A DNA stretch of 57,245 nucleotides from Pyrinomonadaceae bacterium (GTDB lineage: Bacteria > Acidobacteriota > Blastocatellia > Pyrinomonadales > Pyrinomonadaceae), in the NCBI GenBank assembly GCA_036389875.1, contig DASVVZ010000256.1, forward strand, positions 1-57,245. Reading direction: 5' to 3'. Position numbers and translations under genes: made by a program. The notes beneath the pieces were generated by a model, which was not told the DNA's origin, searched no databases, and saw only the letters and a program-made list of their open reading frames with translations. Positions 2,500-35,516 of the stretch are shown here, in pieces (position 1 is the first letter of the stretch; the number at the start of each line of letters is the position of its first letter).

Positions 2500-2540
2500 A
2501 ACACCGCAGAGAGAACAGCATCCGAGGAGGATAAGCATTC

Positions 2541-3020: not shown

Positions 3021-3023
3021 GAG

Positions 3024-4726: not shown

Positions 4727-5385
4727 TCACGTCGGGTTTCAATTCTTACCAGTTCGCGCTGCGCGGTCAGCCCCTGCCGGAGGTGGATGACTCCATGGCC
4801 GTCTGCTACTTAATCGGCGCAAACGGGGTGCTCGCGCGCTCGCGCCGCCCCGGGCTGGAGGTGGGGTTGCCCGTCGGCGTCCACTTCCAGCAGCTCAGGG
4901 GCCTGGAGCCCGTCACGCCTTACGTGAAGTGGGACCTGCCGCGTGTTCCGATGCAACTGGTAGAGCTAATGCTCACGGTCTCGCGCGCGTGCGCTTCTCC
5001 AGAGCCGACAGAGGCGCTCTTCTACCTGAACCATGGCGAGCCGCATACCAGTGACGCAATCATAAGCGAAGGCGGTTGGAACCTGGAGGCACCGCCGCAG
5101 CGCGCGAGCCGGGAGTGGGTTGAACCCGAAGAGACTGGTGCGGGCTCTTCTACCGAGCGCGCGTTGATAGAAGTCCACAGCCACCATTACATGAGGGCGG
5201 AATTCTCTCCCGGTGATGACACCGACGAGCTGGGCTGGTTCCGGGTCTATGGGGTGATCGGCAACATCTTCGAGAGGCCTGAGTTGCGCGTGCGCGTCTC
5301 ACTCTTCGGCCACGGGTGTGAATGGCCGGCCTCCGAATTCTTTGAACTGCCGACTGAATTAAATGACTGCTTGAAAGGTAACTAA
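4723..5385 (+). CDS. JAB/MPN (JAMM) metallopeptidase
   Basis: Complete JAMM motif H-S-H-x7-S-x2-D in EVHSHHYMRAEFSPGDD (5176-5217), with an upstream Glu (PTEALFYL). ATGA overlap with the E2-like gene. Confidence 0.8.
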   Translation: MITSGFNSYQFALRGQPLPEVDDSMAVCYLIGANGVLARSRRPGLEVGLPVGVHFQQLRGLEPVTPYVKWDLPRVPMQLVELMLTVSRACASPEPTEALFYLNHGEPHTSDAIISEGGWNLEAPPQRASREWVEPEETGAGSSTERALIEVHSHHYMRAEFSPGDDTDELGWFRVYGVIGNIFERPELRVRVSLFGHGCEWPASEFFELPTELNDCLKGN

Positions 5386-5388
5386 GAG

Positions 5389-6910: not shown

Positions 6911-7840
6911 TCACTCGTCGTAGCTGAAAGAATTTACAGGGTTCCTCTCCAGATTCTCCCTACCCTTATCATAGCGCTGCACGGTCTTCGGATCCCTATG
7001 TTTTGTCACCATCTGAATGTCCCTATAGCTATGCCCCTTATTCAGCAGGTGCGTGACGACCGTCCGGCGCAGGTCGTGCGGCGAGACCTTCCCCAGGCGG
7101 CCGTAGTCGCCCCACTTCCCTACGATGTAATGCACCATCCTGGGCGATAGTCCCTTGTCGAATTCCAGGCTCCTGTAATTGACCGTGGGCTGGAAGAGGA
7201 AGGCATCCCCTCCCCCGCTCTTGACTGTCTCACGCCGCTTCTGGTCTAGCCTGAGGCAGTCGTCGATCGCGGCCTTGACGTCCTGCGGGAGCGGCCACTT
7301 CTCTTCCCTACCGCCCTTGACCTTGCAGGTCAGAGTCCAGCGCCCCTCTTCCCACCTCACGCTCGAGGCGCGCAGCGCGCAGACCTCGCTGACTCTCAGG
7401 GAGAGCCGCAACATGACGAGCATCATCGCGTAGTCGCGCGCGCCCTCGGGCTTTGACCTGTCCGGGCCAGCCAGGAGGTGCTTGACCTCCTTGGCCGAGA
7501 GCGCCCGCCCCTTCACGACGTCAGAGTTCCGCGGCGCCGAGACGAGCTTCGTCGCTGCCGGGTTGCGGGAGACCATGCCTCCCTCGCGCAGGTAGTCGAA
7601 GAGCGAGCGGACGACGCAGAGCTTGAAGATGATGGTGGAGTCACGTAGATTGCGCGCGCGTAGGCGGTCCCGCCAGGCGGCCACATGTGCCGGCGTCACT
7701 TCATGAGGCGCAACTCCTCCGACGAACCGAGAGAACTCCTCTACAGTCGCCCTATATTTGCGCCTGGTCTCCGCTGACAGAGACTTCTCTACGAAGAGCG
7801 CTATAGCCTTCTGGTCAAATTTTTGAAGCTCTGTGGACAT
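6911..7840 (-). CDS. int: Tyrosine recombinase / phage integrase
   Basis: Catalytic signature R (LRLSLRVSEV), HDLRRT and H..Y (KHRDPKTVQRY). N-terminal core-binding-like domain. Confidence 0.9.
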   Translation of the reverse strand: MSTELQKFDQKAIALFVEKSLSAETRRKYRATVEEFSRFVGGVAPHEVTPAHVAAWRDRLRARNLRDSTIIFKLCVVRSLFDYLREGGMVSRNPAATKLVSAPRNSDVVKGRALSAKEVKHLLAGPDRSKPEGARDYAMMLVMLRLSLRVSEVCALRASSVRWEEGRWTLTCKVKGGREEKWPLPQDVKAAIDDCLRLDQKRRETVKSGGGDAFLFQPTVNYRSLEFDKGLSPRMVHYIVGKWGDYGRLGKVSPHDLRRTVVTHLLNKGHSYRDIQMVTKHRDPKTVQRYDKGRENLERNPVNSFSYDE

Positions 7841-23925: not shown

Positions 23926-24173
23926 AACGAATTGAACAGCCCGCTCTCAAGGGGGGCTTCAGGTATCAGCAAAGTCGTCCCCGGCTCCAGCTTGCGCGGG
24001 TCCGCGATATTATTTCTTGTTGCTATCTCGCGCCAGAATCTTCTGTCCCCCCAGTAGCGATGTGTGATGCCGTCGATGTTCTCCCCGAAAGCTACGACGT
24101 GCACGCGCAATCGCTCCTCGGTCTGAGGGTTAAAGTGTCCGTAACGGCGGAACGGGCTGATACTCTTGGCCAT
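23922..24173 (-). CDS. LysM-like tail protein X
   Basis: YWGDRRFWREIATRNNIADPRKLEPGTTLLIPE is a LysM-type motif, as in P2 gpX. Confidence 0.7.
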   Translation of the reverse strand: MAKSISPFRRYGHFNPQTEERLRVHVVAFGENIDGITHRYWGDRRFWREIATRNNIADPRKLEPGTTLLIPEAPLESGLFNSL

Positions 24174-24175
24174 CT

Positions 24176-24697
24176 TTAGAAATTCCCGATAGGCGAGAAG
24201 CTTTCCGCCTCTCCTTCGTCTATCTCCACGATCCTGGAATTTACCTGCTCTCTTAATTCAGGCAGTTCAAAGAGCGTCATGGAGACTTTGGCGCGCTGCT
24301 GATTGTTCTCCGGAGTGAAAGCATCGCGATCTATATCAAGCTCTTCGAGCGTGCATCTGACCTGCCAGTCGCCGCAGATCATTAGCAGGGGCGGCGGCGT
24401 TCCATTGTCCCGCTGGTTCATCAATGCGCGTATGTGCTCAATCGCCTCAGTCAACGAAAGGTTTGTGCCGACCGTGGTCAACCAGCATTCGTCGAAGGAT
24501 ATTTTCTGCGGCTCCCTGTTAGCGTACTGGGGCGGCTTTACACCTCCGATTGTGTCAGCCATCTCCCAGTTATTCCTGTCAGAAGTCCTGATTGACGCAG
24601 GGAAGGGTAGCCCCACGTCGCCCTCATCCAGGTCAAAAGTGTAGGTGCCCGGGCGACGCAGGTTGATAAGAACTAATTTTTTACTTCTACGCGACAT
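24176..24697 (-). CDS. Tail protein downstream of the tape measure (tube-initiator/gpU-like, by position)
   Basis: 173-aa ORF between the tape measure and LysM protein genes. Confidence 0.4.
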   Translation of the reverse strand: MSRRSKKLVLINLRRPGTYTFDLDEGDVGLPFPASIRTSDRNNWEMADTIGGVKPPQYANREPQKISFDECWLTTVGTNLSLTEAIEHIRALMNQRDNGTPPPLLMICGDWQVRCTLEELDIDRDAFTPENNQQRAKVSMTLFELPELREQVNSRIVEIDEGEAESFSPIGNF

Positions 24698-24712
24698 AAA
24701 ATATTTTGAGTC
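24693..24712. promoter_or_regulatory. 20-bp palindrome family copy (GACATAAAATATTTTGAGTC)
   Basis: Two mismatches. Spans the tape-measure stop and the start codon of 24176-24697. Confidence 0.5.
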
Positions 24713-27700
24713 AGCTCAGGTCCTCATCTCTTTCTTCCATGTCGTACATTTTTGCAGCAAGCTCCTCGAAGAAATCATCCTTGCTGCTAGCCAGCGCCTT
24801 CTCGGCTGCCGCCTGAGCCAGCTCTTGCAACTGCTGTGGGCTCAAGTTACTGCCCATCACCTGCACGGTGATGGAAGGCGCGAAAGTAACGGGACCAAAA
24901 GCCATAGAAGCAGGAGGGGGTGCAGAAGCGCGGACATAACTGCCGCCATCCTGTGCGCTGCTGACAGCCAGGTTGCGCAAAGCCTCTACGTCCTGAAGCC
25001 AGTCACCCGGGCTCCGGCGCGACAGACTGGCAGGAAATACTTGATTTCTATTTCCGTCTGCATTAAGAGTGCGAGTGTATGCAACGTATTTCTGTAGCTC
25101 ATTATTCGGAGTAACGAATCCGTTAGCGTTAGGCGTAAATAGCTCTACACCGCGCTCGCCTCCGATGTAGTCCACACCTTTAAGCACGCGCCCACCTTTA
25201 GCGAAGTAGCCGCCGAAAGGTCTAACGTTCGGCGTGTTGCCTGTCTGATTTGAAGGTGTCGGAAAAGCGGGGAATGTTGGCCGTTCTATAACAATGGAAT
25301 TTACTTTATCAGCGAGATTCTGAGCAGCAGAAGAGACGTTCTTGAATGCAGGCGGAATCTTATTAGCGGGGTCAATGCACTGGCCGAAAGCGTCTGCGGT
25401 CTGCTTGGCAGGCTCGGCTATGTTTAATATGCTTTGTGCGAAACCTCCCATTACAGAATTATCAAGGGACGGTTTAGCTGGTATCTGTACGCTTGCAAAT
25501 ACGCTCTCTATAGCACGTTGTAGATTAGCTTGGCCTTCGGGCGATAAGCCTATCTTCGGAAGCTCAGTCTGTATAAAGCTCTGGCGAACTTCTGGAATAG
25601 CAAGTTGAGGCGCGAACCTTTGAAGCATCTCTTTGTCTGTAGCTAAAGGCTGATTGCCATAGAAGGGCCGCGCTAATCTGCGATAAAGAGTATTTTCAAA
25701 TTCTGTTGCTGTGAACGTTCCCCTTGCTCTGCTCAGTTCGCCGCCGCGCATAAGAGACTCACGAACAGAGCGAGCAGATACGGAATAGTCAACTACGTCG
25801 CCTTTCTGCCGTCTCTGATTGATAGTGTTGTAATCAAGAGTTGCGCCCTGTTCTCTTCTTAACTGCTCTCTATACGCTTGCACGTTTTTGTAACTGGCGA
25901 ACGCGCCTCCAGCTATCGCCGCAATACTCATAGTCACGGGGTTGGTAGCAAGGCCAGCAGCACCAACCGCGCCCCTGCCTATCAAGCTTGCTCCGCCCGC
26001 AGCTACTTCCGAGTTGATGCCTCCGCCGCCGCTTCCACCGCGTAGCATACCGTTGAAAAGGCCAACTCCGTCTGCGGCCTCCGCGCTCGCTTTACCTAGA
26101 GACAAAAGACCAATCATAGCGGCGGACATGGCCGGATTGTCTGAAGAGGTTGCTTGTAGGCTCTTGATTTGATTTGATAGCTGCTCTGCTACGTTTCCGC
26201 CTAATGTCATAACGGGTGCGCCAGCCGCAGCCCTTGCATTCGTTTGTGAGGCTGTAAATTCTAAGAATTGTCCGAGCGGGTTTCCCCTCTCGAACATCTG
26301 ATTATAAAAGCCCTCAACATTAGGCACGCGCACATAATTCTCAGTCTCTTTCGACAACTGCCTACGCATGAGCATCATCTGCGCTACTTCACGCTTTGCC
26401 GTGCGGTTGCCGAACATCACTTCTAATTGCTTGGCTACAGCTTCTACGTTCGTAGTGTCAACGCCCTTTCTATCGAAAGCGGCCATCAACTTGTCTGTGA
26501 AGGTAAACGGGTCTCTTCCCATGTCGTTACTTATAGGAATAGCCCCGGGAAGCAGGCGCGAAATCTCGCCACGTCTATTGAACTCAACTTTTGAGCGGTC
26601 AAGCAATCCCATTTCGCCCCAATACTTGAGCTTGTGAGCAGGGATTTGACCGCCAACAACAGCGCTATAAAGTGAAGTGAGAGCAGTACCCGCAGCCTTG
26701 CCGCCCATCTGCTGAATGAGTGGCATAAACTTCATAAGCCCTTCGGGGGACATCTGCATGCCTACAATCTGACCTTGCTTGATAAAATTGCGAAACTCAG
26801 AAGGATTTACTTCTCCACCTGTTGCCAGATTCGTCTGCGCTATGAGATTCAAAAACTGTTTGGCTGTATTAGTGTCAATGTCTTTACCCATTAACTCAAC
26901 AGCCTTCACCGCGTCAGAAAATGCTTTGATAGACTGCTCTCGCCCTACTCTGTCACCGTTAAGCGCTTCGGTTGCCGCAACGAATCTTGAAGCTTGAGGC
27001 AATAACGCTATAGCCTCATTAACGCTTCCCATAGTGCCTGTAAGGTTCGTGAGTAGTTCTGTCGCGTCTACTTGACGCACGCCCCTTATTTGAGATGTGA
27101 CCTGTTCCACAGCTTGCAACCCTCTGGCCGTCTCAGCTTGTGGATAGTTGAGAAGTTGAAAGCGGGTCTGTGCGCGTTTGAGTTCAAGGGCAGGGTCAAC
27201 GAATCCACCCCTTACCATGTCGTAAGTGCGCTCTGCTACATAGCCTACGTTGCGGGCAGTCCGCACGCCCCTGTTAAATCTGTCTACGTTGTCGTAGTCG
27301 CCGGATGCGCGCCTCCCCCTGCGGCCTGTGCGGCCTGTCGCTCTAGCCGCTTCACGCTCTAAACGTGCGCGCTCTCTTAGTAGCTTTATGTCTGCTATCT
27401 CTGCTGAGCGCTGCGCGCCAGTGGCCCGCGCTTTGGTTTGAGTAAGCCTAGCCTGCTCACGCTCTAAACGAACGCGGTCTTGCATCAGCTTGACTTGCTC
27501 ACGCACGGCACGAGTCTCGCGGTTTAATGCTGTAGCAGTCGCCCCGCTCTTTGGCAGACCGCTCTTAGGCACGCTGCTATTAGGCTTTAGTTTGTTGAGC
27601 GCTCTTTGAAGTGATATTGCCTCTTTATTCGCGCCGCGCAGTTGCTTAGTGAGAGCAGAGATACGCTTCTCCGCTTGGCCCTGAACCAAGAATTGAAGGA

Positions 27701-27731
27701 TAAGCTTGTGAGTTTCAGAACCTTTGCCCAT
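24711..27731 (-). CDS. Tail tape measure protein
   Basis: Largest tail-module ORF (1006 aa from the ATG at 27731). Helical, Ala/Gly/Gln-rich, with a charged coiled-coil N-terminus and a Gly-rich patch GGSGGGGINSEVAAGGAS. Confidence 0.85.
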   Translation of the reverse strand: MGKGSETHKLILQFLVQGQAEKRISALTKQLRGANKEAISLQRALNKLKPNSSVPKSGLPKSGATATALNRETRAVREQVKLMQDRVRLEREQARLTQTKARATGAQRSAEIADIKLLRERARLEREAARATGRTGRRGRRASGDYDNVDRFNRGVRTARNVGYVAERTYDMVRGGFVDPALELKRAQTRFQLLNYPQAETARGLQAVEQVTSQIRGVRQVDATELLTNLTGTMGSVNEAIALLPQASRFVAATEALNGDRVGREQSIKAFSDAVKAVELMGKDIDTNTAKQFLNLIAQTNLATGGEVNPSEFRNFIKQGQIVGMQMSPEGLMKFMPLIQQMGGKAAGTALTSLYSAVVGGQIPAHKLKYWGEMGLLDRSKVEFNRRGEISRLLPGAIPISNDMGRDPFTFTDKLMAAFDRKGVDTTNVEAVAKQLEVMFGNRTAKREVAQMMLMRRQLSKETENYVRVPNVEGFYNQMFERGNPLGQFLEFTASQTNARAAAGAPVMTLGGNVAEQLSNQIKSLQATSSDNPAMSAAMIGLLSLGKASAEAADGVGLFNGMLRGGSGGGGINSEVAAGGASLIGRGAVGAAGLATNPVTMSIAAIAGGAFASYKNVQAYREQLRREQGATLDYNTINQRRQKGDVVDYSVSARSVRESLMRGGELSRARGTFTATEFENTLYRRLARPFYGNQPLATDKEMLQRFAPQLAIPEVRQSFIQTELPKIGLSPEGQANLQRAIESVFASVQIPAKPSLDNSVMGGFAQSILNIAEPAKQTADAFGQCIDPANKIPPAFKNVSSAAQNLADKVNSIVIERPTFPAFPTPSNQTGNTPNVRPFGGYFAKGGRVLKGVDYIGGERGVELFTPNANGFVTPNNELQKYVAYTRTLNADGNRNQVFPASLSRRSPGDWLQDVEALRNLAVSSAQDGGSYVRASAPPPASMAFGPVTFAPSITVQVMGSNLSPQQLQELAQAAAEKALASSKDDFFEELAAKMYDMEERDEDLS

Positions 27732-27740
27732 ACAAAAAGA

Positions 27741-27774
27741 CCCGCGACTCAAAATGATTTTGAGTTAAAGCGGG
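27741..27774 (-). terminator. Terminator-like hairpin embedding a palindrome family copy (27746-27766, GACTCAAAATGATTTTGAGTT)
   Basis: CCCGC and GCGGG arms extend the palindrome. On the minus strand the stem is followed by TCTTTTTGT, directly before the tape-measure ATG. Confidence 0.55.
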
Positions 27775-27822
27775 CCTCTGGTTCGGGCCTCTATGATTTA
27801 TGGCGCTCTACTTCGGCGCTCT
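27772..27822. repeat. Four GGSSCTCT direct repeats
   Basis: GGGCCTCT at 27772 and 27785; GGCGCTCT at 27802 and 27815. Lies between the lipoprotein-like gene's stop and the hairpin. Confidence 0.4.
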
Positions 27823-27872
27823 ATGTAAAGGGGATTATAACAGAGAAGCTAATTTCGTAAAGAAAAAGTTTC

Positions 27873-28247
27873 TCACTGAAACGCTACAGCGATGTTCTCA
27901 ATTCTCCATTTATGGCTTTCCCTGGTTAACGTGATGATGCTTTTACCGCCGCATTTCCATTGAATCACAACCTCTGCGGATTCATGCACGATAGTTTCGT
28001 TTAGTATCTCAAATCCTTTATTCTCACATTCCAGATAAGTCTTGCGCGTAGCAGCCGACAGTATCCTTAAACCTGTTACCTCTTGACTCTGAGCAGCGCG
28101 TGAAGAGTAGTATTGAAGAGAGCCTTCTATATCCCCCTGCTCTAGCTTACCTGCCCAATTCTTAACAGTATCAGAAGGAGAAGAGAGCGAGCCGCAGCAG
28201 ATTAGCAAGATGCATGAGAGGGCTAACAGGGTGGGCGTGCGCGTCAT
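27873..28247 (-). CDS. Secreted/lipoprotein-like small protein (NTF2/DUF4878-like)
   Basis: Signal peptide MTRTPTLLALSCILLICCGSLSSP, then SDTVKNWAGKLEQGDIEGSLQYYS. Confidence 0.6.
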   Translation of the reverse strand: MTRTPTLLALSCILLICCGSLSSPSDTVKNWAGKLEQGDIEGSLQYYSSRAAQSQEVTGLRILSAATRKTYLECENKGFEILNETIVHESAEVVIQWKCGGKSIITLTRESHKWRIENIAVAFQ

Positions 28248-28310
28248 GCGGCAGATTGTAGCTGAAAATATTTAAGGGGCAAAGCTTACACTCTGCCCCT
28301 TCCTTGTCTT

Positions 28311-28475
28311 GCCATGCCTCGCCTCACCATGCGATGCCCAGCCTGCCCACGCCACGCCTCAAAAACCTTAGAAATAATAGCGCGGGATAATAACCATGCC
28401 ATGCCTGCCAAGCCCTGCCCAGCCCGTCCGGGCCAAGCCGTACCATCCCTTGCCCCGCCGCACCAAGCCCTACCT
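28311..28475. repeat. Two blocks with CC dinucleotides at strict 5-nt periodicity (28311-28360, 10 units; 28406-28475, 14 units)
   Basis: gccat gcctc gcctc accat gcgat gccca gcctg cccac gccac gcctc, and tgcca agccc tgccc agccc gtccg ggcca agccg tacca tccct tgccc cgccg cacca agccc tacct. Confidence 0.7.
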
Positions 28476-28490
28476 CGAAAACTTAAGACT
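28473..28490. repeat. Left arm of an 18-bp perfect inverted repeat (CCTCGAAAACTTAAGACT)
   Basis: Exact reverse complement of 30992-31009. Overlaps the stop codon of 28483-28683. Confidence 0.8.
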
Positions 28491-28683
28491 TCTTTTTACT
28501 ACCCTTCTTTGTTGAAGGTCTACCCATTTTTGGCGGCGTGAAGTTTTTAAGGTCACTATCAGGAACGACCCAGCCGCCAACTTGCTTTGCGTTTGGAAAG
28601 CGCCCCTGCCTACACCACAGTCTTACCGTGGTTTCGTCTACGTTCAGCCGCGCAGCAACTTCCGATGTAGATAGTAACTCCAT
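28483..28683 (-). CDS. Excisionase-family / MerR-like HTH DNA-binding protein
   Basis: LLSTSEVAARLNVDETTVRLWCRQGRFPNAKQVGGWVVP. Basic C-terminal tail. Confidence 0.7.
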   Translation of the reverse strand: MELLSTSEVAARLNVDETTVRLWCRQGRFPNAKQVGGWVVPDSDLKNFTPPKMGRPSTKKGSKKKS

Positions 28684-28727
28684 AGGTCAGCATATTAAGA
28701 GCAGAGCAATGTTTTGTCAACAAATAT

Positions 28728-28780
28728 TTACCGCCAGCGAGAATATTTCTATTGACAAAGTTTCTCGCTGGCGGTAAACT
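28728..28780 (+). promoter_or_regulatory. Sigma70-like promoter (TTGACA-17 nt-TAAACT) overlapped by a perfect 16-bp inverted repeat (candidate operator)
   Basis: TTACCGCCAGCGAGAA (28728-28743) pairs with TTCTCGCTGGCGGTAA (28762-28777). The -35 box is at 28752-28757 and the -10 box at 28775-28780. The GAAAGGGG Shine-Dalgarno and the ATG at 28807 follow. Confidence 0.55.
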
Positions 28781-28806
28781 TATAGACATCGAAAGGGGCG
28801 AATCAA

Positions 28807-29016
28807 ATGAGCAAACTTGAGCAGGCCAAACAAAAGCTCGGATTCATAGGCCGCACGCTTGAAAACGGCTATCTGGACTTTGACACCATAGACGAGCTAC
28901 AGCATGCGGTCTGTAGCGTCAAGCGGCTAATCACTGAGCATGAGCAGGATACGTTGCAACTGCCTTTGATAGAGGGCGCTTCTACATTGGTAGTTTATGA
29001 GCCGAGAGAGGCATAA
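28807..29016 (+). CDS. Hypothetical small protein
   Basis: 69-aa ORF with a good Shine-Dalgarno; first gene after the candidate promoter. Confidence 0.5.
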   Translation: MSKLEQAKQKLGFIGRTLENGYLDFDTIDELQHAVCSVKRLITEHEQDTLQLPLIEGASTLVVYEPREA

Positions 29017-29021
29017 GAAGC

Positions 29022-29056
29022 GGGCTTAGGAAAGCGCAGCAACGCTCCCTAAGCCC
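29022..29056 (+). terminator. Imperfect hairpin between the first and second cassette genes (attenuator/terminator candidate)
   Basis: GGGCTTAGGAAAGCG..CGCTCCCTAAGCCC. No clear T-run. Confidence 0.3.
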
Positions 29057-29087
29057 TTCACCATTCACCACTTGAGAGGGGCAAACG

Positions 29088-29333
29088 ATGAAGGGACAGA
29101 ATAACACATCCCGCAAGACAAAGACACGCGCAGAGCTTCGGGCAGAACTGGCACACGACCTTGCGTTGGTTCTCAACAATCCAGAGCTTCCAAAAGAAGT
29201 ATATGAGGGAATCACGGACGACCTGAAAGAGTTTTACAGTATGCTTTCGGGGGAAGGCCAGCGCTACATTAACGACTCAGAGGATTACATCAAACTCGTT
29301 TTAGAGGGCGGCTCTAAAGGGGGTGCGCGCTGA
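29088..29333 (+). CDS. Small protein, paralogue of 29641-29880
   Basis: Shares the basic N-terminus, RAEL...NPELP.E.Y, and the C-terminal KGGAR with the 79-aa ORF. TGATG overlap with the next gene. Confidence 0.55.
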   Translation: MKGQNNTSRKTKTRAELRAELAHDLALVLNNPELPKEVYEGITDDLKEFYSMLSGEGQRYINDSEDYIKLVLEGGSKGGAR

Positions 29334-29644
29334 TGGCTAAGAGAGGCGAAGCAATAGAATCTGGCGGCTTTACAATGCAGCCTTTCACCTCCGCTGATAT
29401 TGACTACATGGTTGAGCTAACGCGACTTGCCGTAAGCTATGAAGACGACGAAGCCACAACCGCCTTCGCACTCTTAATCGCTGGCATCGCAGCCACTGAC
29501 TTTGACCGTGAAACTCTTGCTTGTTTCATCATTGAAACTGCATTAAGCAAGTCAAGAGAAATCCATTACATGATGAGCGACTACATGAATAAGGAGAGCA
29601 AGAGACTGCGAAAAGAGTTAAATAAAGGGGGTTCGCGCTCATGA
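29333..29644 (+). CDS. Hypothetical small protein
   Basis: 103 aa ending KGGSRS. ATGA overlap with the next gene. Confidence 0.5.
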   Translation: MAKRGEAIESGGFTMQPFTSADIDYMVELTRLAVSYEDDEATTAFALLIAGIAATDFDRETLACFIIETALSKSREIHYMMSDYMNKESKRLRKELNKGGSRS

Positions 29645-29880
29645 AAAAGGTTTCCGACACAAAGCGTAAGTCTAGGGTTCAATCCCGCGCTGAACTGGCG
29701 CGGCTGCTCGCCAAAGTAATGGCACACCCTGAACTCCCCTTTGAACTCTACCACGCCATAGGAGATGAAGTTATTACTTGGATTGATAACAACGCCGCAG
29801 AAGACCCGGCTTACATCGAAACAGCACTAAACGCTTATTTTCGGAAAGTGGCGCGGAATAAGAAAGGGGGTGCGCGCTGA
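29641..29880 (+). CDS. Small protein, paralogue of 29088-29333
   Basis: See 29088-29333. The 3' end AAAGGGGGTGCGCGCTGATGGCTAAGA is identical to 29320-29346. Confidence 0.55.
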   Translation: MKKVSDTKRKSRVQSRAELARLLAKVMAHPELPFELYHAIGDEVITWIDNNAAEDPAYIETALNAYFRKVARNKKGGAR

Positions 29881-30335
29881 TGGCTAAGAAATACAACCCC
29901 TTAAACCTTCCTATTCCAGATTGGAACAAGCGGAAAATGACAAGTGTGGACTTTGAAGCTGTCTGCAAACGTGAAGGAATTACAGTAGAACGCACACGTA
30001 TGAAAGGCGACACTCGCGGCCTCTACTTCATACAGGATGGATGCTCGCACATCATCATAGACACACAGTTGAGAGGGATTAGAAGGGTACAAGTTGAGTT
30101 TCACGAATTAGGCCACTACTTCCTACGACACGAAAGAAACAAGCGGGCATTGAAGCAGATTGACCCTGATACGCATAAGTACGTAAAAGGCAGTCGCTCT
30201 CCCTTACAGGAATGGCTAGAACTTGAAGCGAATATAGTCGCCTGCATAGCAATAGCACCGGGTTTGATGGGCGCTGACGAATTACGCCATCTGGCGCTAA
30301 CCGCTACGAGAATCAACTGGCTAAAGCACAAGTAA
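29880..30335 (+). CDS. ImmA/IrrE-like (COG2856-type) zinc metallopeptidase
   Basis: HEXXH in VEFHELGHYFLRHERN. About 150 aa, a typical size. Confidence 0.65.
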   Translation: MAKKYNPLNLPIPDWNKRKMTSVDFEAVCKREGITVERTRMKGDTRGLYFIQDGCSHIIIDTQLRGIRRVQVEFHELGHYFLRHERNKRALKQIDPDTHKYVKGSRSPLQEWLELEANIVACIAIAPGLMGADELRHLALTATRINWLKHK

Positions 30336-30354
30336 ACCCAAAATATTTTGACTC
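30335..30354. promoter_or_regulatory. Degenerate palindrome family copy (AACCCAAAATATTTTGACTC)
   Basis: Three mismatches. Lies between the ImmA-like stop and the 208-aa gene's start. Confidence 0.4.
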
Positions 30355-30372
30355 AAAAAGGAGAATCTAGGC

Positions 30373-30999
30373 ATGGGAAGTAACATCACAAAAGTAAAGG
30401 TCACAATCAAAGGCGTACGGCCTTTGCTATTACATCACTTCGGCCCTGACGCGCTGCCGCTCGAAAAGCGGGAGAAGACAGGCGTAGCAGGCAACGACCC
30501 CGAAGAGTGGCGCAAGACCGCGCTCGTCAATAAGGATGGTCAAATCTACCTTGACCCTTCTTATGCTTTCGCGTGCATTAGAGACGGCGCAAAGTACACG
30601 AAGAAAGGCAAAGGCTCAATCCAAGCTGTGGTTGCCGCAACTCTTCAAGTCTTGGATGATTCTGTGTTGATAAACCGCTATCTCCCCGGCTTCCCTAATG
30701 GTCATGCTTGCGACCTTGCCAGCGCGGAAGCTCCGACGCGAGACGCTAGCGCTCCCGTTTATCTGGACGTTCGCAGCGTCAAGAACCCAAGCACGAAGGG
30801 GCGCAACGTACGCTATCGCGTGGCCTGCTCTGCCGGATGGTCAACCAGCTTCACTATCCTTTTTGATAAGACCATAGTGAGCAGGGCAGAAATGGAAGCC
30901 GTATTGAATGATGCAGGCGTGCTTGTAGGCATCGCAGACGGGCGCTCTATCGGATTCGGGCGCTTCACCGTAGAAAGCTTTGAAGAGTTAGAGTCTTAA
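30373..30999 (+). CDS. Hypothetical protein (208 aa) with a C-terminal glycine-rich loop
   Basis: Good Shine-Dalgarno (AAAGGAG). C-terminal VGIADGRSIGFGRF. No family recognised. Confidence 0.55.
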   Translation: MGSNITKVKVTIKGVRPLLLHHFGPDALPLEKREKTGVAGNDPEEWRKTALVNKDGQIYLDPSYAFACIRDGAKYTKKGKGSIQAVVAATLQVLDDSVLINRYLPGFPNGHACDLASAEAPTRDASAPVYLDVRSVKNPSTKGRNVRYRVACSAGWSTSFTILFDKTIVSRAEMEAVLNDAGVLVGIADGRSIGFGRFTVESFEELES

Positions 31000-31009
31000 G
31001 TTTTCGAGG
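30992..31009. repeat. Right arm of the 18-bp perfect inverted repeat (AGTCTTAAGTTTTCGAGG)
   Basis: Reverse complement of 28473-28490. Overlaps the stop codon of 30373-30999. Confidence 0.8.
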
Positions 31010-31072
31010 CGCGGCTCGGCTCTGCATGGATTGGCGCGGACTGGCGGGGCGAGGCAAGGCGAGGCATGGTAG
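31008..31072. repeat. GG dinucleotides at strict 5-nt periodicity (13 units)
   Basis: ggcgc ggctc ggctc tgcat ggatt ggcgc ggact ggcgg ggcga ggcaa ggcga ggcat ggtag. Mirror image of the CC tracts at 28311-28475. Confidence 0.7.
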
Positions 31073-31090
31073 GCAAGGCAAGGTTCTTTA

Positions 31091-31387
31091 ATGCCAAAGA
31101 AAAGGCAACCTAAAGAAATCTGGCGAGAGACACGACGCAGGATATTGGCGCGAGACGGCTATAGATGTGTCGGGCCAACGTGCGGCGGCGTGTCTCTCAC
31201 AGAACAGACCGCCCACATAGACCACATACGAAGCGGGAAATTAGGGACTAACGCTGACGATAACTTGAGAAGCCTATGCAGGCGATGTCACGTCCTGCGC
31301 GTTGATTTCAGGCATAGAGGAATGATTGCTAATGCTTTGAGAGATGGAATCATTCCTCCGAACTGGCGCGGGTTGGTTTGGGACTGA
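31091..31387 (+). CDS. HNH endonuclease
   Basis: CVGPTCGG...AHIDHIRSGKLGTNADDNLRSLCRRCH. Confidence 0.8.
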   Translation: MPKKRQPKEIWRETRRRILARDGYRCVGPTCGGVSLTEQTAHIDHIRSGKLGTNADDNLRSLCRRCHVLRVDFRHRGMIANALRDGIIPPNWRGLVWD

Positions 31388-31513
31388 CGATAGTACGAAG
31401 GTATTGAATCTTCCGCACTTCTCACATTTAATTTCAATACAACCAACGGTTTTAGGACTCACCTTTGCGGCAAGCCTAAAACAGTCCTTTTGATTGCATC
31501 GAAGTTTTATCAT
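31274..31513 (-). CDS. Mu Com-like zinc-finger protein
   Basis: MIKLRCNQKDCFRLAAKVSPKTVGCIEIKCEKCGRFN resembles the Mu Com motif (RC..C...L......iEIkCpRC). Its 3' part overlaps the convergent HNH gene, so the true end is uncertain. Confidence 0.45.
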   Translation of the reverse strand: MIKLRCNQKDCFRLAAKVSPKTVGCIEIKCEKCGRFNTFVLSSVPNQPAPVRRNDSISQSISNHSSMPEINAQDVTSPA

Positions 31514-31668
31514 TTTCTGTCGCTTTTTCGAGCAGGTGGAGTACGGCTAGGGACTACCTGATAATGATTCAACGATCCACAGTGAAAACACTTTTTGTAA
31601 ATACCCGGCGGAGTCCTATCTGGATACTCCGCTCTCTTTCTGCAATTACTGCAAGCCGTAACAATCAT
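31510..31668 (-). CDS. Small zinc-ribbon protein (52 aa; below the track cutoff)
   Basis: Hand translation MIVTACSNCRKRAEYPDRTPPGIYKKCFHCGSLNHYQVVPSRTPPARKSDRK. ATGA overlaps at both ends. Confidence 0.45.
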   Translation of the reverse strand: MIVTACSNCRKRAEYPDRTPPGIYKKCFHCGSLNHYQVVPSRTPPARKSDRK

Positions 31669-31847
31669 CTTCTATTGCGAGTTCTTAATGCTTTCGCTGT
31701 TTCCGCAGCATCTTCGTTGATAAAACTTACATAAGTATTACGCCTTATCACAGGCAAGGCCATAACTTCGGCTTCACTCATGCCTGTTTCCTGCATCAGC
31801 CTGTATATAGTTCGCAGGTAAGCTTTCTTCTTCTTCTCCCTCCGCAC
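31665..31847 (-). CDS. Overlapping ORF downstream of the tail chaperone (candidate frameshift extension)
   Basis: Overlaps the 3' end of 31774-32445 in the +1 frame, across a (GAA)4-A purine tract. Confidence 0.4.
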   Translation of the reverse strand: MRREKKKKAYLRTIYRLMQETGMSEAEVMALPVIRRNTYVSFINEDAAETAKALRTRNRR

Positions 31848-32445
31848 GAAAGGAATTTAACCAGCCACTCTCCTTTTCAGCTAAAGCGAACAAGCTTATA
31901 GCGTCCAAACCCTCGAACATATCCAGAGGCACAGGCCCTTTCATAGTCGCCGTGCCCTCTGATTGGGAAAGCTCCGAAATCTCTTTACCTATAATGAGGT
32001 AGTTCTTTCGCAACCCCTCCAGCTCGTCGGCTTCGCCCTCCATATAGGCGTCTATCAGCGTGCCGAACTCGACCACGTCATACTCAACGCCCCCGCGCGT
32101 GAAAGGGAAAGGCAGCTGGATCTTGCTGTCTGAAAGCTGCTTAGGTTTTCGACCGCCTGCTGTTTTCAGTAGGAAGGCGTTATAGCCGCGAGCCAGCGCC
32201 ATTCGATCCGGGCGATTAAGTGACATGAGAACAGTCATCGGCACCGGCATCCTTAAATCACCGAAAGAGGTGATGGCGCCGCCCAGCATCATGAGCTGGC
32301 TTTGCGTCTCTTTGTCGAACCCTTCCTCCTCGCTCATTTCGAAAAGGTCACGGCCCGTAAGCCTTCTGCCGAACACAACCTTGCTGTGCCTCACCTGGTC
32401 AGGTCCGGTGTAACCGAACCTGAGATTAACCTCGACGTTACTCAT
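31774..32445 (-). CDS. Tail assembly chaperone-like protein (by position)
   Basis: 223-aa acidic ORF immediately after the tube gene, with an overlapping downstream ORF. Confidence 0.5.
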   Translation of the reverse strand: MSNVEVNLRFGYTGPDQVRHSKVVFGRRLTGRDLFEMSEEEGFDKETQSQLMMLGGAITSFGDLRMPVPMTVLMSLNRPDRMALARGYNAFLLKTAGGRKPKQLSDSKIQLPFPFTRGGVEYDVVEFGTLIDAYMEGEADELEGLRKNYLIIGKEISELSQSEGTATMKGPVPLDMFEGLDAISLFALAEKESGWLNSFRAEGEEEESLPANYIQADAGNRHE

Positions 32446-32471
32446 AACTTCCGCCTTTAGCTTCTATAGAA

Positions 32472-32906
32472 TTAGATCCAGCGCGCGTCTTCAGGCTGAA
32501 CGGTGAAGGTGAACTTCAGCATGTCATTTGATGTGCCGTCCCCGTCGTCAATCTTGAAGCTGGTTATCATGGTGTCTATCAGCTCCCTGGTGCGAATGGG
32601 CACGCGCTTGGCGTCGTCGTAGTAGATGACTCGGATCGTCTTTCGCTCGTCGCCGATCCGGAGCTTAGCGGTGCGGTAGTACCAGGAGTGGATTTCGCGA
32701 TCCACCTGGTTTGTACTGATAGCGCCGGAGAATGTAGCCTCTCCGATTTCCACGTTGCCCATGCCGTGCTCTGCCATCACCGTATTGCCCGGCTGATTCG
32801 TGCTGGGCGTCATCTTGTCGTCGGGATCGGTGAAGTCGTTGCACTCAAACTTTCCGATGCCGTCTATCTCGACTCTAAAATTACCTTTGGTTGTATGCCT
32901 GCCCAT
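32472..32906 (-). CDS. Tail tube protein
   Basis: 144 aa directly downstream of the sheath gene. Confidence 0.7.
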   Translation of the reverse strand: MGRHTTKGNFRVEIDGIGKFECNDFTDPDDKMTPSTNQPGNTVMAEHGMGNVEIGEATFSGAISTNQVDREIHSWYYRTAKLRIGDERKTIRVIYYDDAKRVPIRTRELIDTMITSFKIDDGDGTSNDMLKFTFTVQPEDARWI

Positions 32907-32949
32907 CTCTTCACACCTCTTTCAAAGAAGATTCAAATGCACCGGAAGT

Positions 32950-34470
32950 TTAAGCTTCGAGCTTCACCGTCAGTGGCTGCTGGTTTAGCGAGACGTTGAC
33001 GCGCTCGGCCGTGGGCGAGATTCTCACGTCCACCTTGACGTTCAGAACCTGCTGATCGAGGCTCTCCGCCGGGTTGTTCTGCTGGTCGCAAACAACCAGG
33101 AACGCTTCCTCTTCCGTCGCGCCGTAGAGGCCGCCCGCCCTCCAGAGCTGTCGGCAGATGCTTTCACATACTGACTTGGCCTCTCGGAACAGTTGCCCGC
33201 TGCCATCGATGGTCTGGAAGGGGATGTTCTGCAAAGAAGCCTTGAGCTGATAGTAGAGATAATTCAGAGTGCGAATCTCGTGAATCATCTGCACGCGGGA
33301 GTCCGGGCTTATCAGGCGCTCGCCGTATATGCGGATGCCCTGGCCCCGGAACGGCACGATGGCGTTGATCTGATTCTCATTGAGGAAGGCGCGCGTGTTG
33401 TCGTCCATCTGCGCCAGGCCCGTCGAGTACGTCTCAATGCCGAGCGCACCCGGAATAAGACCCGTCAGCCCCGCCGGTGCCTTGAACACGCCTATAGAGT
33501 CGGCCTTCGCGCACGCGCCTGCGGCAAAGGCGCTCGTCGGGTAAAACTTCCTGACGCCGGAGCCTGCGAAATCCAGCATCACGACGCGCGGCCAGTGCAG
33601 CCCCCCGAATGTAATGGCGTCGCGTACGTCTTTTACTTCGTCCTTGTCCAGACCTTCGGCGGCGTCATGAAGCGGTAACCTCTGATAGGCGAGTCCGTGG
33701 GCTTCGAGAGCGGCGTGCGCAGCATCCGTGGTCACGCCGGGGAGCGCCACTTGACCGGGGCCGAACTCTTCCGAGTTGAGCACCTGCAAGCCGGTAGCTT
33801 CAGCAGTGCCGGCGCCTGCACCGATGAAAGACGCGTCAGAAAGCCCTGCGAAGTCGTCAGAGCCTCCGACCAGTAGGGTTTCAGCTGTTAAATCCGGCAG
33901 GTTGGCGGGAGCGGCATTAGCTGAAGCAAGGTTCGTTAGCTTCACGAGCTTCGAAGCGGCGTTGACGATGGCAAGTGACGCCGCATCCATCTTCAGGTTG
34001 TTGTAAGACTCCATCAGGTCTAGCTTGTTCGACCAGACCGTGAGCCTGACCGTGTTGGCTTCGGTGCCGGCTTCTATCTTGAAGCGCACTTCCACGCTCG
34101 AAGACGGATACTTCGCGTCAATCCGCAGCGTGTCGTCTTCCGCCTCGTCCACGCCCCTGTCTTTAATGGTCTTGGTGGCCACGGCCGCCGCCGCGCCGAC
34201 GACGCGCACGACCACGGCGCGGTCGCCGGGAAAGACGTTGAAGAAGATGTACATGGCGTCCCCCAGCGCGGAATTGGCGTGCAGCCCTCCGAACTGCCGG
34301 CGGTAATCTTCGAAGCCGGTGATATTGACGGGCTGGTTGACCGGGCCCCAGGGCGAGTATCCGACGGCGAGGAGCCGCGAGTTGGTTTCCAGTTGAGAGG
34401 GGCGAGCCACCGGCGAATCGTTGACGCCTACGTGAACGCCCGGTGTCGATGAGCCTGTAATGGGTAGCAT
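32950..34470 (-). CDS. Contractile tail sheath protein
   Basis: 506 aa. N-terminus TPGVHVGVND and C-terminal INAIVPFRGQGIRIYGERLIS are sheath-like. A tube gene follows. Confidence 0.85.
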   Translation of the reverse strand: MLPITGSSTPGVHVGVNDSPVARPSQLETNSRLLAVGYSPWGPVNQPVNITGFEDYRRQFGGLHANSALGDAMYIFFNVFPGDRAVVVRVVGAAAAVATKTIKDRGVDEAEDDTLRIDAKYPSSSVEVRFKIEAGTEANTVRLTVWSNKLDLMESYNNLKMDAASLAIVNAASKLVKLTNLASANAAPANLPDLTAETLLVGGSDDFAGLSDASFIGAGAGTAEATGLQVLNSEEFGPGQVALPGVTTDAAHAALEAHGLAYQRLPLHDAAEGLDKDEVKDVRDAITFGGLHWPRVVMLDFAGSGVRKFYPTSAFAAGACAKADSIGVFKAPAGLTGLIPGALGIETYSTGLAQMDDNTRAFLNENQINAIVPFRGQGIRIYGERLISPDSRVQMIHEIRTLNYLYYQLKASLQNIPFQTIDGSGQLFREAKSVCESICRQLWRAGGLYGATEEEAFLVVCDQQNNPAESLDQQVLNVKVDVRISPTAERVNVSLNQQPLTVKLEA

Positions 34471-34536
34471 AATCTATTCGTCCTCGCTTTCAGATAAACT
34501 CGTTACTAGAGACTGCTGATTACTATGCCGCCGCTT

Positions 34537-34836
34537 CTACTTCTTGTTGTTAGTTGAAGGCGGGCGCTGCTGCGAAGAAGAAGGAGAAGCAGTACTACTA
34601 CCTGAGCTGGTTAGTGGTGCAGGCTCCGGAGCAGGCGTGCCTTCCTCTTTGGGGGGCGCGGCCTCTTTTTTCTGTCGCTCGGGCAGCACCATGAGCATTT
34701 CGGTGTCGACAAAACGCCTGCGATCGCTCTCGGAGAGCTGGACTGTTTTCTCGCTGCCGTCATGACCGGCGGCGCCGATGAGCGTGCCGTCTTCGAGCAT
34801 GATTGTTTGAAGCGTCATGTTACGGACTGTGGGCAT
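34537..34836 (-). CDS. Hypothetical protein with Pro/Ser-rich tail
   Basis: 99-aa ORF upstream of the sheath gene. Confidence 0.45.
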   Translation of the reverse strand: MPTVRNMTLQTIMLEDGTLIGAAGHDGSEKTVQLSESDRRRFVDTEMLMVLPERQKKEAAPPKEEGTPAPEPAPLTSSGSSTASPSSSQQRPPSTNNKK

Positions 34837-34841
34837 TTTGT

Positions 34842-35516
34842 CTATTCCTCCTGATTACTCTCTGCGTGAACGCCTGGAGCATCTGTCTCCGGGTGCGGTG
34901 CATTCCTGACGCCCAGGCTGAAATTGATCTGCTCTATTTCAATCGGCACATCGGGTACGACATCTGCCGCCAAGTACTTGAACATCGTATCGAAGTGGAC
35001 TGCGTAGGCCGTAAGCTCCGGCAATCTCACAACGTATTCAGGGTTGGGCGGGTCTTCCGAAACTGTCATCACATCAAGATTAAGGATGACCTCTTCCACC
35101 CCGCCCCCCTCAATCTCTTCGGTCTTTACAAATTGCCTGCCTACGACTGCGGCCTGTGCGGTGGCGATCATTTTCGCTACGCCGATTTTCTCAGCCGCCT
35201 CGCCCCGCCAGTCGGAGCCACAGCAAAGAACCGTGAACGTACAGCGATGAACACGCACTATCTCATCGCCTGGAAAGATTGGCCCGGAGCCGTCGGACGT
35301 GTCATACCCTGCGGCGTACGCAATCAGGTAAAACGGCAGGCGGCTGATTAAGGATTTGAGGGCCGACTTTGACTCCTTCTTCAGCTCCTCCTGGTCCAGT
35401 TCGCCCTTGTAAGGTCGGACGGCTTCGCTGGCAACACCGCTCTGCGCTTTAATGGCAGTGATAATGCCGTCCTCAATGCCCCTTACGTGGTAATCAAATG
35501 GCTTCATCAGCTCCAT
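34842..35516 (-). CDS. Tail-completion/neck module protein (unknown family)
   Basis: Start moved to the ATG at 35516 (MELMKPFDYHV), overlapping the upstream stop. Confidence 0.4.
   Translation of the reverse strand: MELMKPFDYHVRGIEDGIITAIKAQSGVASEAVRPYKGELDQEELKKESKSALKSLISRLPFYLIAYAAGYDTSDGSGPIFPGDEIVRVHRCTFTVLCCGSDWRGEAAEKIGVAKMIATAQAAVVGRQFVKTEEIEGGGVEEVILNLDVMTVSEDPPNPEYVVRLPELTAYAVHFDTMFKYLAADVVPDVPIEIEQINFSLGVRNAPHPETDAPGVHAESNQEE

Follow-up and report, generated by a model that had tools for sequence, protein, structure and literature searches.

The DNA analysed here is a 57,245-nt stretch of contig DASVVZ010000256.1 from a Pyrinomonadaceae bacterium (hereafter referred to as the window), and corresponds to a myovirus-type phage or prophage with its late operon on the minus strand. 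An accessory cassette (27732-31664) lies between the extension of the tail assembly chaperone (TAC) gene and the tape-measure protein (TMP) gene. It contains a gene for a RAMP protein of 208 amino acids (aa), three arrays of YNNGG repeats and a small HNH endonuclease gene, which we identify as the parts of a Viral Interference Programmable Repeat (VIPR) system, and it is very probably a self-regulated accessory operon with this system and its HNH partner as active cargo. VIPR systems, reported in 2026 as RNA-guided systems of phages that are related to the backbones of CRISPR complexes, have been described as consisting of a minimal RAMP protein (Vipr), an accessory gene (vap) and guide RNAs of ~100 nt (vrRNAs), with 9-16 YNNGG repeats (at least four) in the intergenic DNA flanking vipr (bioRxiv 10.64898/2026.04.26.720920). 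Their NN dinucleotides read double-stranded DNA, with one base skipped between; the systems are mainly phage-encoded, typically have two protein genes and fall into seven types, some of them with nuclease or helicase accessory proteins (Vaps) (10.64898/2026.04.26.720920). A sequence-only reading of this DNA had already described the cassette: every open reading frame (ORF) that it listed is present where it was placed, the cassette is real, and its borders are the end of the extension ORF at 31665 and the ATG of the TMP gene at 27731. That reading was right to see an accessory island; it overlooked the three YNNGG arrays and did not recognise the 208-aa ORF as a RAMP or the locus as VIPR.

The vipr gene, its HNH partner and the guide arrays

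The vipr gene (30373..30999, plus strand) encodes a 208-aa Cas7-like RAMP protein (Vipr208), recognised by profile, tblastn and structure-model matches. Library searches assigned it to no Pfam or PADLOC family and only to a PHROG of unknown function, and its 1579 homologs, two of which come from Pyrinomonadaceae metagenome-assembled genomes (MAGs), are all unnamed and without a Pfam domain. Profiles built from 30-35 Vipr208 homologs matched PDB 36pp_D, "SUSP1 Vipr protein" (E values of 1.2e-8 and 2.8e-8), a single solved structure, in an alignment that takes in the C-terminal glycine-rich loop (G-loop): GRSIGFGRF, invariant across these 30-35 homologs, aligns with RFGRF of SUSP1 Vipr. By tblastn, 95% of Vipr208 aligns at 29% identity with a conserved hypothetical Felixounavirus gene; we take SUSP1 to be a member of this group. 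The AF2 model of Vipr208 (pLDDT of 83.5) had Csm3/Cas7-type RAMP subunits as its top 50 Foldseek matches in the PDB (E about 1e-7), from type III, type VII and Cas7-11 complexes, and its matches in a viral structure library were uncharacterised viral proteins, of which one bears a RAMP annotation. By these comparisons the 208-aa ORF encodes a minimal RAMP that belongs by homology with the characterised Vipr proteins.

Downstream of vipr, HNH98 (31091..31387, plus strand) encodes a 98-aa HNH endonuclease (PF01844, E value of 8e-7), as the sequence-only reading had proposed, and is a candidate Vap nuclease. Residues C26, C31, D44, H45, N54, N58, C63, C66 and H67 are invariant among its relatives, the zinc-binding cysteines and the catalytic motif being intact. 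No recognisable DNA-binding domain of its own was found in HNH98, and its PHROG matches are to generic "HNH endonuclease" families and include one family of terminase small subunits. The gene is missing from the public gene calls for the contig, and it overlaps an antisense ORF, Zn79. An HNH gene lies directly 3' of vipr in 11 of 11 loci from IMG/VR (58-74% identity to HNH98; comparison loci and contigs from IMG/VR, MAGs and metagenomes are hereafter labelled L007, L008 and so on). The DNA identity between the window and L007 begins 18 nt inside vipr and stops at the HNH stop codon, one vrRNA tail being the only other stretch shared. Because the similarity ends at these borders, vipr-vrRNA-HNH (~1 kb) can be regarded as a conserved unit, and because it is confined to vipr..HNH and one vrRNA tail, the cargo of the cassette is, by the pattern of identity, horizontally acquired.

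The first of the three arrays, vrRNA1 (30997-31083, plus strand), has a leader (TAAGTTTTCGAGG) that includes the vipr stop codon, 12-13 YNNGG units (12 guide units at 31010-31069) and a tail (TAGGCAAGGCAAGG), and the start codon of the HNH gene follows 8 nt after it. The minus-strand vrRNA2 (28394-28485) begins with the same leader directly after the stop codon of a helix-turn-helix (HTH) gene, HTH66, and continues with 13 guide units, or 14 with the leader unit, and the tail CAGGCATGGCATGG. On the same strand, vrRNA3 (28274-28370) has the leader TAAGGTTTTTGAGG, about 9-13 units, the tail CAAGACAAGG and an intrinsic-terminator hairpin (28274-28301); a promoter-like site (28402-28374) lies just 5' of it, and its tail and terminator are 75% identical to their equivalent in L007. 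Such predicted promoter-like and terminator-like sites are the only signs of vrRNA expression. Each array opens with a common leader, TAAG(G)TTTT(C/T)GAGG, and because this leader is shared, an 18-nt perfect inverted repeat is formed by 28473-28490 and 30992-31009. In the 39 pooled units, position 1 is a pyrimidine in 34, position 4 a G in 37 and position 5 a G in 38, and positions 2 and 3 are free. The longest strictly phased NNNGG run comprises 14 units (vrRNA2); when the window was shuffled 100 times with its dinucleotides preserved, the longest run had 7 units, and 1000 local shuffles gave at most 6. These three arrays, which make up two GC-rich stretches on either side of the block, are the only long phased NNNGG runs within the window.

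The window and L007 have Vipr proteins that are 82% identical and near-identical vrRNA tails, with unrelated NN content, and a constant GGY frame with variable NN content was also found across 13 further loci. An array lies between vipr and HNH in L007, L008, L009, L013, L014, L015, L017, L028, L029 and L030, often with a second array 3' of HNH. Arrays adjoin every vipr homolog examined, and none was found in the VIPR-less relative described below. In the cassette, no direct-repeat/spacer array was found, an Rfam scan gave no ribozyme or known RNA above threshold, and no Cas family was matched by the cassette proteins in domain, PHROG and PADLOC library searches. The cassette lacks the repeat-spacer array and the cas1 and cas2 genes that define CRISPR-Cas.

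Candidate targets of the guides

The natural targets reported for VIPR systems belong to rival phages and satellites and lie mostly in coding DNA; the skipped bases fall on codon wobble positions, at least 80% of the NN bases match, and no self-targets are among them (10.64898/2026.04.26.720920). We scored the guides by the published one-base-skip rule, with the NN dinucleotides read as NNxNNx. The vrRNA2 guide matched the TMP gene of L035 at 21/26 positions (23/28, or 82%, with the leader unit) and that of L038 at 20/26, in the same conserved C-terminal motif and in codon phase 0, and the L035 score of 21 was reached by at most 1 of 300 unit-order shuffles. The mismatches are conservative codons, and the guide predicts an allele with the sequence NLHRGNV[I/M]FPA[K/N]LS. 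In a protein search, the L035 TMP was compared with 1.84 billion representative proteins, and a family with the predicted motif was returned. Its best match to the guide-encoded peptide, P0143 (NLHRGNVVFPAKLS), agrees at 12 of 13 positions and carries the predicted Arg and Lys variants. The corresponding DNA in L039 (12761-12801; AACCTGCACCGCGGGAACGTCGTCTTCCCGGCGAAGCTCTCG) matches vrRNA2 at 27/28 positions, every skipped base being a codon third position, and L039 has neither cassette nor arrays. The homologous motif in the window's own TMP gene (25024-25061; ADGNRNQVFPASL) is half replaced and scores 13/26. The target was found only through TMP homologs and the guide-encoded peptide.

Three of the contigs with TMP or tail-gene homologs (L035, L036 and L037; 15-18 kb) encode ParA and Prim-Pol, and the only genes that they share with the phage of the window are homologs of the chaperone gene, the TMP gene and either the tube initiator or the hub gene. 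They resemble the TMP- and hub-bearing satellite that is targeted by the SUSP1 VIPR (bioRxiv 10.64898/2026.04.26.720920).

For the three guides, no match above shuffled controls was obtained in the window or in the first locus set, the best match in the window being at chance level, and skip lengths of 0, 2 and 3 returned nothing except the arrays matching themselves. Exact-seed scans of IMG/VR with units 1-9 of vrRNA2 and units 1-9 of vrRNA1 gave no matches. A seed of vrRNA2 units 5-13 gave four matches in IMG/VR, all to one AT-rich sequence (19/26, no extension), the vrRNA3 seed gave two, of which the one in a long ORF has the wrong codon phase, and a seed of vrRNA1 units 4-12 gave two without extension; all were dismissed as chance. 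The same verdict was reached for the single match of an 11-unit vrRNA2 seed in metagenome contigs, which lies out of phase in an apparent luciferase-like oxidoreductase ORF. Finally, vrRNA1 matches the window's own chaperone gene at 16/24; its peptide score (36) stays below the null maximum (41), and the match was rejected as not significant.

A clade-wide scan of 33 arrays from 19 loci against 332 kb of sequence yielded five ten-unit matches of at least 18/20 for the real guides and none for shuffled guides, with 12 and four, respectively, at exactly 17/20. A vrRNA of L029 (9625-9674) matches the G-loop codons of vipr in the window (30934-30962) at 18/20 positions and in L030 at 19/20, versus 15/20 in its own vipr gene, in which the mismatches comprise a Ser TCN-to-AGY codon switch and an Ile-to-Val change. 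We count this pattern as support for conflict between VIPR systems within the clade. Other guides resemble genes of their own phage: the guide of L009 (10591-10655) matches its own TMP gene (6924-6961), about 2 kb away, at 22/26, and that of L008 (4047-4136) matches its own flanking portal gene (4191-4243), also at 22/26. Both near-self matches, at 85%, lie above the threshold of 80% used in the preprint, which reports no self-targets. The guides of L007, L008 and L016 spell in-phase variants of their own flanking genes (a 141-aa gene, portal and Neck1, respectively), and the guide-peptide scores for L007, L008, L016 and L009 were 60, 63, 42 and 47, for null maxima of 48, 42, 37 and 47.

Cassette frame, borders and relatives

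The accessory block had been predicted to have its own promoters and to be transcribed against the tail operon, and the sequence bears this out. The control region (28692..28780) contains two divergent sigma70-like promoters, TTGACA-17-TAATAT on the minus strand (28692-28720) and TTGACA-17-TAAACT on the plus strand (28752-28780), both predicted with 10/12 matches, and a 22-nt inverted repeat (28727-28778, 91% complementary) that overlaps both and is a candidate operator. The minus-strand gene HTH66 (28483..28683) encodes an excisionase/MerR-type HTH_17 protein (PF12728, E value of 1.6e-11; PADLOC mad1, 7e-9), an assignment that the sequence-only reading had anticipated, and its product is a likely repressor of the divergent promoters. 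A homologous HTH_17 gene is divergent from the vipr operon in L007, L009, L028 and L029, and L007 also resembles the window in having minus-strand vrRNAs after it. HTH66 was considered as a VIPR-specific Vap and rejected in this role, since the VIPR-less cassette of L034 keeps an HTH gene.

Five genes of the same operon, o69, o81, o103, o79 and ImmA151 (28807..30335, plus strand), lie 5' of vipr. ImmA151 encodes a 151-aa ImmA/IrrE/CapP-like metallopeptidase with an HELGH motif (Peptidase_M78, E value of 3.7e-5; CapP model, 3e-5), and by analogy with known pairs we infer that the HTH repressor and an ImmA-type anti-repressor would form a switch for the operon. The genes between HTH and vipr differ from locus to locus, with an ImmA-like protein in the window, S24 peptidases in L028 and a PD-(D/E)XK protein in L030. 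The o81 and o79 genes are paralogs, and a 27-nt junction sequence (AAAGGGGGTGCGCGCTGATGGCTAAGA) is present in exact form at 29316-29342 and 29863-29889, with a third copy at 29624-29650 (78%), which suggests that a stretch of the operon was duplicated locally.

The nearest phage relative is found in a Pyrinomonadaceae MAG, SMAG_U3204 (L031/L032 and L034), with 95% identity for the sheath and 84-96% for baseplate proteins. Its cassette keeps homologs of o69 (58%), the only one of the five upstream genes to be retained, of HTH66 (37%) and of a 124-aa ORF (77%), and has no vipr gene and no arrays; LAGLIDADG-like (347 aa) and different HNH-like (103 aa) genes are present instead. The 124-aa ORF (27873..28247, minus strand) corresponds to a 125-aa gene that in L034 directly follows the HTH gene; no family match was found for its product by profile search, and the label of lipoprotein given to it rests on a hydrophobic N-terminus. 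The sequence-only reading had asked whether close relatives carry the same genes at this place: the frame does recur in the nearest one, and the cargo differs. By this comparison, o69, the HTH gene and the 124-aa gene are a conserved cassette frame, and VIPR is exchangeable cargo. In addition, SMAG_U3204 has two chaperone-TMP pairs (TAC of 223 aa with TMP of 1038 aa, and TAC of 215 aa with TMP of 1012 aa), with the VIPR-less cassette between them. No close relative was found among GenBank phages by megablast of 24000-35000; chaperone relatives numbered none in IMG/VR and one in the protein database, and sheath scans returned only the same MAG and one 28% match.

That reading had also proposed a comparison of chaperone/TMP adjacency in related phages, and the two genes are adjacent in every related genome with a readable junction. 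The TMP gene begins 63 nt past the extension ORF in L031/L034 (the L031 contig ends inside the chaperone extension, and the junction was read from the overlapping contig L034), the gap is 121 nt in L039, a distant myovirus with the same tail synteny, and the genes are adjacent in L035, L036 and L038, shorter contigs with TMP homologs. To call the junction "inviolate" was nevertheless an overstatement: six loci, the window and five others (L007, L009, L012, L013 and L017), carry the vipr-HNH module at the 5' end of unrelated TMP genes. The idea that the module always lies at a TMP gene is likewise discarded, since it adjoins portal in L008, terminase in L015 and L030 and Neck1 in L016, and tail-tip genes elsewhere. 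In a siphovirus-like relative, L028 (1584-6792), a ~9-kb cassette extends from the tail-tube-side genes to a long gene and encodes VIPR together with an AAA_15/AAA_21 ATPase, two S24 peptidases and a GvpU-like protein, which suggests a hotspot of defence genes.

The late operon on the minus strand runs from the terminase, portal and head genes through the sheath (32950-34470) and tube (32472-32906) genes to the chaperone with its extension and TMP, and continues downstream of TMP with genes for the tube initiator, a LysM protein, the hub, the spike and the baseplate. The upstream border of the cassette is formed by the TAC gene (223 aa; weak Phage_TAC_7 match) and its overlapping extension ORF (31665..32445, minus strand); the TAC is 52% identical to that of L031, where the extension ORF is also kept. 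The extension (31665-31847) lies in the +1 frame relative to the chaperone (31774-32445) by coordinate reading, with a start offset of 598 nt, and the frame change spans an A-rich run (GAAGAAGAAGAAAG); the usual frame would be -1. At the other border, the TMP gene (24711..27731, minus strand) encodes 1006 aa from the ATG at 27731, the same product as in public gene calls, and is assigned from its position, size and context. It is 78% identical to the second TMP (TMP#2) of L034 and is mosaic: TMP#2-like to about residue 885, it continues with an L035-like patch and ends in 70 TMP#1-like residues, and one of the junctions falls exactly at the motif homologous to the vrRNA2 target (25024-25061).

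The cassette had been described as AT-rich relative to the structural genes. Its GC content is 0.495 and its third-position GC content (GC3) of 0.38-0.57 is indeed lower than that of the head and sheath genes (0.75-0.87), and the region of low GC3 extends beyond the cassette into the TMP gene (0.50); the atypical block covers ~24.9-31.7 kb, from Zn52 through TMP. As for the two zinc-finger genes, Zn52 and Zn79 (31274..31668, minus strand), the ORFs are present, with ATGA overlaps up to the end of the chaperone extension, and the zinc-ribbon matches are sub-threshold: both resemble Com, and Zn79 and Zn52 match Zn_ribbon_Com below the curated cutoff (E values of 0.0022 and 0.023), with a match to phrog_6417 (5.8e-5). 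The 3' end of Zn79 overlaps that of HNH98 on the opposite strand, and both ORFs are absent from L034 and L007.

A TMP restart region (27732..27861, minus strand) has a predicted sigma70-like promoter (TTTACG-16-TGnTATAAT), four copies of GGSSCTCT and a leader hairpin. The four repeats are where they had been reported, within 51 nt at 27772-27822, of 18 copies in the whole window. The hairpin at 27741-27774, previously taken for a terminator, is present, not as a plain terminator; it is part of a leader fold on the tail-gene strand (-39.3 kcal/mol, z of -4.25) in which the TMP start codon is paired. A second chaperone gene replaces a 64-nt stretch of this region in L034. By analogy, Zn52/Zn79 and the buried TMP start look like a translational activation of the Mu Com/mom type, which would re-link TMP to the upstream tail genes across the cassette. 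Near the start of the window, plus-strand genes (277-6351), including a 740-aa ORF without a Pfam match, and a tyrosine integrase gene (6911-7840) mark one end of the element.

Alternative explanations and comparison with known systems

We consider a self-regulated accessory operon with VIPR and HNH98 as active cargo to be the probable nature of the cassette, and its use in competition between related phages and satellite-like elements to be the best-supported function on the guide-target matches. We infer that the vrRNAs are expressed and processed here. Vipr208 would polymerise along each ~90-nt vrRNA of YNNGG repeats, and successive NN dinucleotides would read double-stranded DNA as NNxNNx; filament assembly, the skip rule and repression of transcription are taken over from the preprints and would apply here by analogy. 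The vrRNA2 guide would be aimed at the conserved C-terminal motif NLHRGNV-FPAKLS of related myovirus TMPs, with a weaker match to satellite-like elements with the motif, and the phage's own TMP gene, half of the motif being lost, would be spared. Binding would silence the late tail operon of the rival, and HNH98, without a DNA-binding domain of its own, would most likely be recruited to cut the Vipr-bound DNA. HTH66 on the inverted-repeat operator and the ImmA/CapP-like peptidase would probably time the firing of the operon, and the presumed gain for the carrier would be competitive.

Several points weigh against this reading. The VIPR of the window is known from its sequence alone, and the literature on VIPR consists of two preprints with overlapping authors (10.64898/2026.04.26.720920 and 10.64898/2026.04.26.720927). 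Skip-rule and seed scans gave no convincing target for vrRNA1 or vrRNA3, and profile searches gave no match for the 1006-aa TMP ORF. L039 is distant from the window phage (43% identity for the sheath and 27% for TMP; GC content of 0.63 versus 0.55), and a host shared by the two is conjectural. Here the vrRNAs end in a short CAAGG/CAAGA repeat or in a terminator, whereas those of the characterised type II systems have a ~40-nt pseudoknotted tail, and processing or capping may differ. Finally, the nuclease-bearing types III and V are reported to be enriched in cellular defence islands and aimed at viruses (10.64898/2026.04.26.720920), whereas the window system lies in a phage late operon and would be aimed at a structural gene of a relative.

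It is possible, if on balance unlikely, that the 1-kb vipr-vrRNA-HNH unit is a selfish element of RNA-guided homing or marker exclusion, its guides being aimed at rival alleles of the adjoining essential gene; HNH would cut the rival allele in a mixed infection, and repair from the carrier would copy the resistant allele together with the module. Such a unit would correspond, with RNA guides, to the free-standing homing endonucleases. The core of the module is 56-82% identical between phages with unrelated structural genes and always adjoins an essential late gene (the 5' end of TMP, portal, terminase or Neck1). The guides of L007, L008, L016 and L009 read as in-frame variants of a structural gene of their own phage that flanks them or lies nearby, vrRNA2 of the window targets TMP alleles and vrRNA1 has its weak match to the chaperone gene (16/24), and own copies escape through conservative changes or Ser and Leu codon-family switches. 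The TMP gene of the window is mosaic with a junction at the target-homologous site, the low-GC3 block covers both cassette and TMP, and in the VIPR-less relative the cassette houses LAGLIDADG-like and HNH-like genes; on this explanation, the junction at the target motif would be the scar of a homing event. These patterns in the sequences are circumstantial, however, and plain exclusion fits the same relationship between guides and targets. Moreover, the module is separated from the vrRNA2 target by ~3.3 kb, a long distance for co-conversion, the flanking DNA of the carrier phages has no detectable similarity, and no empty/filled pair of sites within one lineage was found.

Repression of transcription by the non-nuclease type II is the only VIPR activity demonstrated so far (10.64898/2026.04.26.720920). 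It might be argued from this that the window's VIPR is a transcriptional silencer only and HNH98 an unrelated travelling neighbour, such as a homing or packaging-associated HNH; phage structural clusters often harbour small HNH genes as selfish passengers, and the PHROG matches of HNH98 are generic. We find this quite unlikely: HNH follows vipr in 11 of 11 loci, with a vrRNA wedged between them and often another after, the identity between the window and L007 starts with vipr and stops precisely where the HNH gene does, at its stop codon, HNH98 has no recognisable DNA-binding domain, and the terminase genes are 12 kb from it. Improbable to a further degree is self-regulation, in which the guides would keep the phage's own late tail operon silent in the lysogen. 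The 85% (22/26) near-self matches to the TMP gene in L009 and the portal gene in L008 pass the 80% threshold, and the operon is antisense to the late genes with promoters of its own; against this, the window's own TMP site scores 13/26 versus 27/28 for the foreign allele, the own copies look like escape variants, and a nuclease partner would be hazardous.

An ordinary protein-only moron or defence island, with pentamer repeats that are incidental or the ends of a transposon remnant, has in its favour the 18-nt perfect inverted repeat (28473-28490/30992-31009) bracketing the HTH..vipr block and the variability of the other cargo within the cassette frame. We regard it as extremely improbable, as the inverted repeat consists of the shared vrRNA leader and a stop codon, and domain and PHROG searches found no transposase or recombinase gene in the block. 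The arrays are, furthermore, phased far beyond chance. They adjoin every vipr gene examined, the VIPR-less relative has none of them, and the guide of one can be decoded to a natural target. Of the options offered by the sequence-only reading, that of a defence locus comes closest, and that of a small mobile element remnant falls with the identification of the inverted repeat as the vrRNA leader.

If the preferred reading of a VIPR-HNH operon used in competition is correct, the locus provides a worked example of a nuclease-linked VIPR in an uncultured phage with its closest relative in a Pyrinomonadaceae (Acidobacteriota) MAG, and combines vrRNAs of defined coordinates with a candidate control switch and a natural target that is matched almost perfectly (27/28). 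New with respect to both preprints are the position of the clade in late structural operons and guides that spell variants of an adjoining or nearby essential gene. These features raise the questions of whether VIPR-HNH destroys the genomes of rivals and whether it spreads itself by homing; if the latter were true, the HNH-linked VIPR clade would consist of RNA-guided homing or marker-exclusion elements in phage structural operons, each with guides against rival alleles of the adjoining tape-measure, portal, neck or chaperone gene. There is also a lesson for annotation, as vipr falls into no Pfam or PADLOC family, public gene calling passed over the HNH gene, and vrRNAs resemble low-complexity DNA.

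In each of the features of the published VIPR definition that are accessible from sequence, the window agrees with it. The window system is like type II (SUSP1/Felixounavirus and a Pseudomonas fulva prophage) in its phage-encoded Vipr, YNNGG vrRNAs beside vipr and one adjacent accessory gene, and like that of SUSP1 in that its predicted target fits the skip rule with wobble skips and involves a competing mobile element carrying a tape-measure homolog. It differs in its accessory, an HNH nuclease here and a winged-helix DNA binder in type II, in its conserved 5' leader (TAAGTTTTCGAGG) and in its vrRNAs, which are single and dispersed on both strands rather than in an array of vrRNAs. The Felixounavirus locus lies among DNA-metabolism genes, whereas that of the window is in the tail operon and has an HTH and ImmA-like module attached. 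As far as the descriptions in the preprint allow comparison, the combination of Vipr with a predicted nuclease is shared with types III-V, one of which has single vrRNAs. An HNH-domain Vap appears there only in a figure legend (fig. S21; 10.64898/2026.04.26.720920).

In its RAMP fold and glycine-rich loop, Vipr208 is like the backbones of Class 1 CRISPR complexes (Csm3/Cmr4/Cas7), with which it would share the logic of an RNA filament plus a nuclease. Type I Cascade variants with fused HNH domains exist and follow this logic of an RNA-bound filament with a nuclease. Unlike Class 1 CRISPR, the window system lacks a repeat-spacer array, the cas1 and cas2 genes and any large or small subunit, and its reading would be non-contiguous, with two bases read, one target base skipped and three guide bases unread. 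The control module is like CapH/CapP and ImmR/ImmA in combining a small HTH protein, an inverted-repeat operator and an ImmA/IrrE-family metallopeptidase (HELGH); unlike in these pairs, HTH66 is of the MerR/excisionase HTH_17 type and not Xre-like, and ImmA151 is short (151 aa) and without a C-terminal sensor domain; its presumed action on HTH66 would be cleavage. In T-even phages, marker exclusion is caused by free-standing homing endonucleases, the products of the seg and mob genes. The window resembles them in having a small nuclease gene between essential genes, a rival allele of a neighbouring gene as the predicted target, a presumably resistant allele of its own and a patchy distribution, and differs from them in that its specificity would come from RNA guides, whereas that of the seg and mob products comes from a protein DNA-binding domain.

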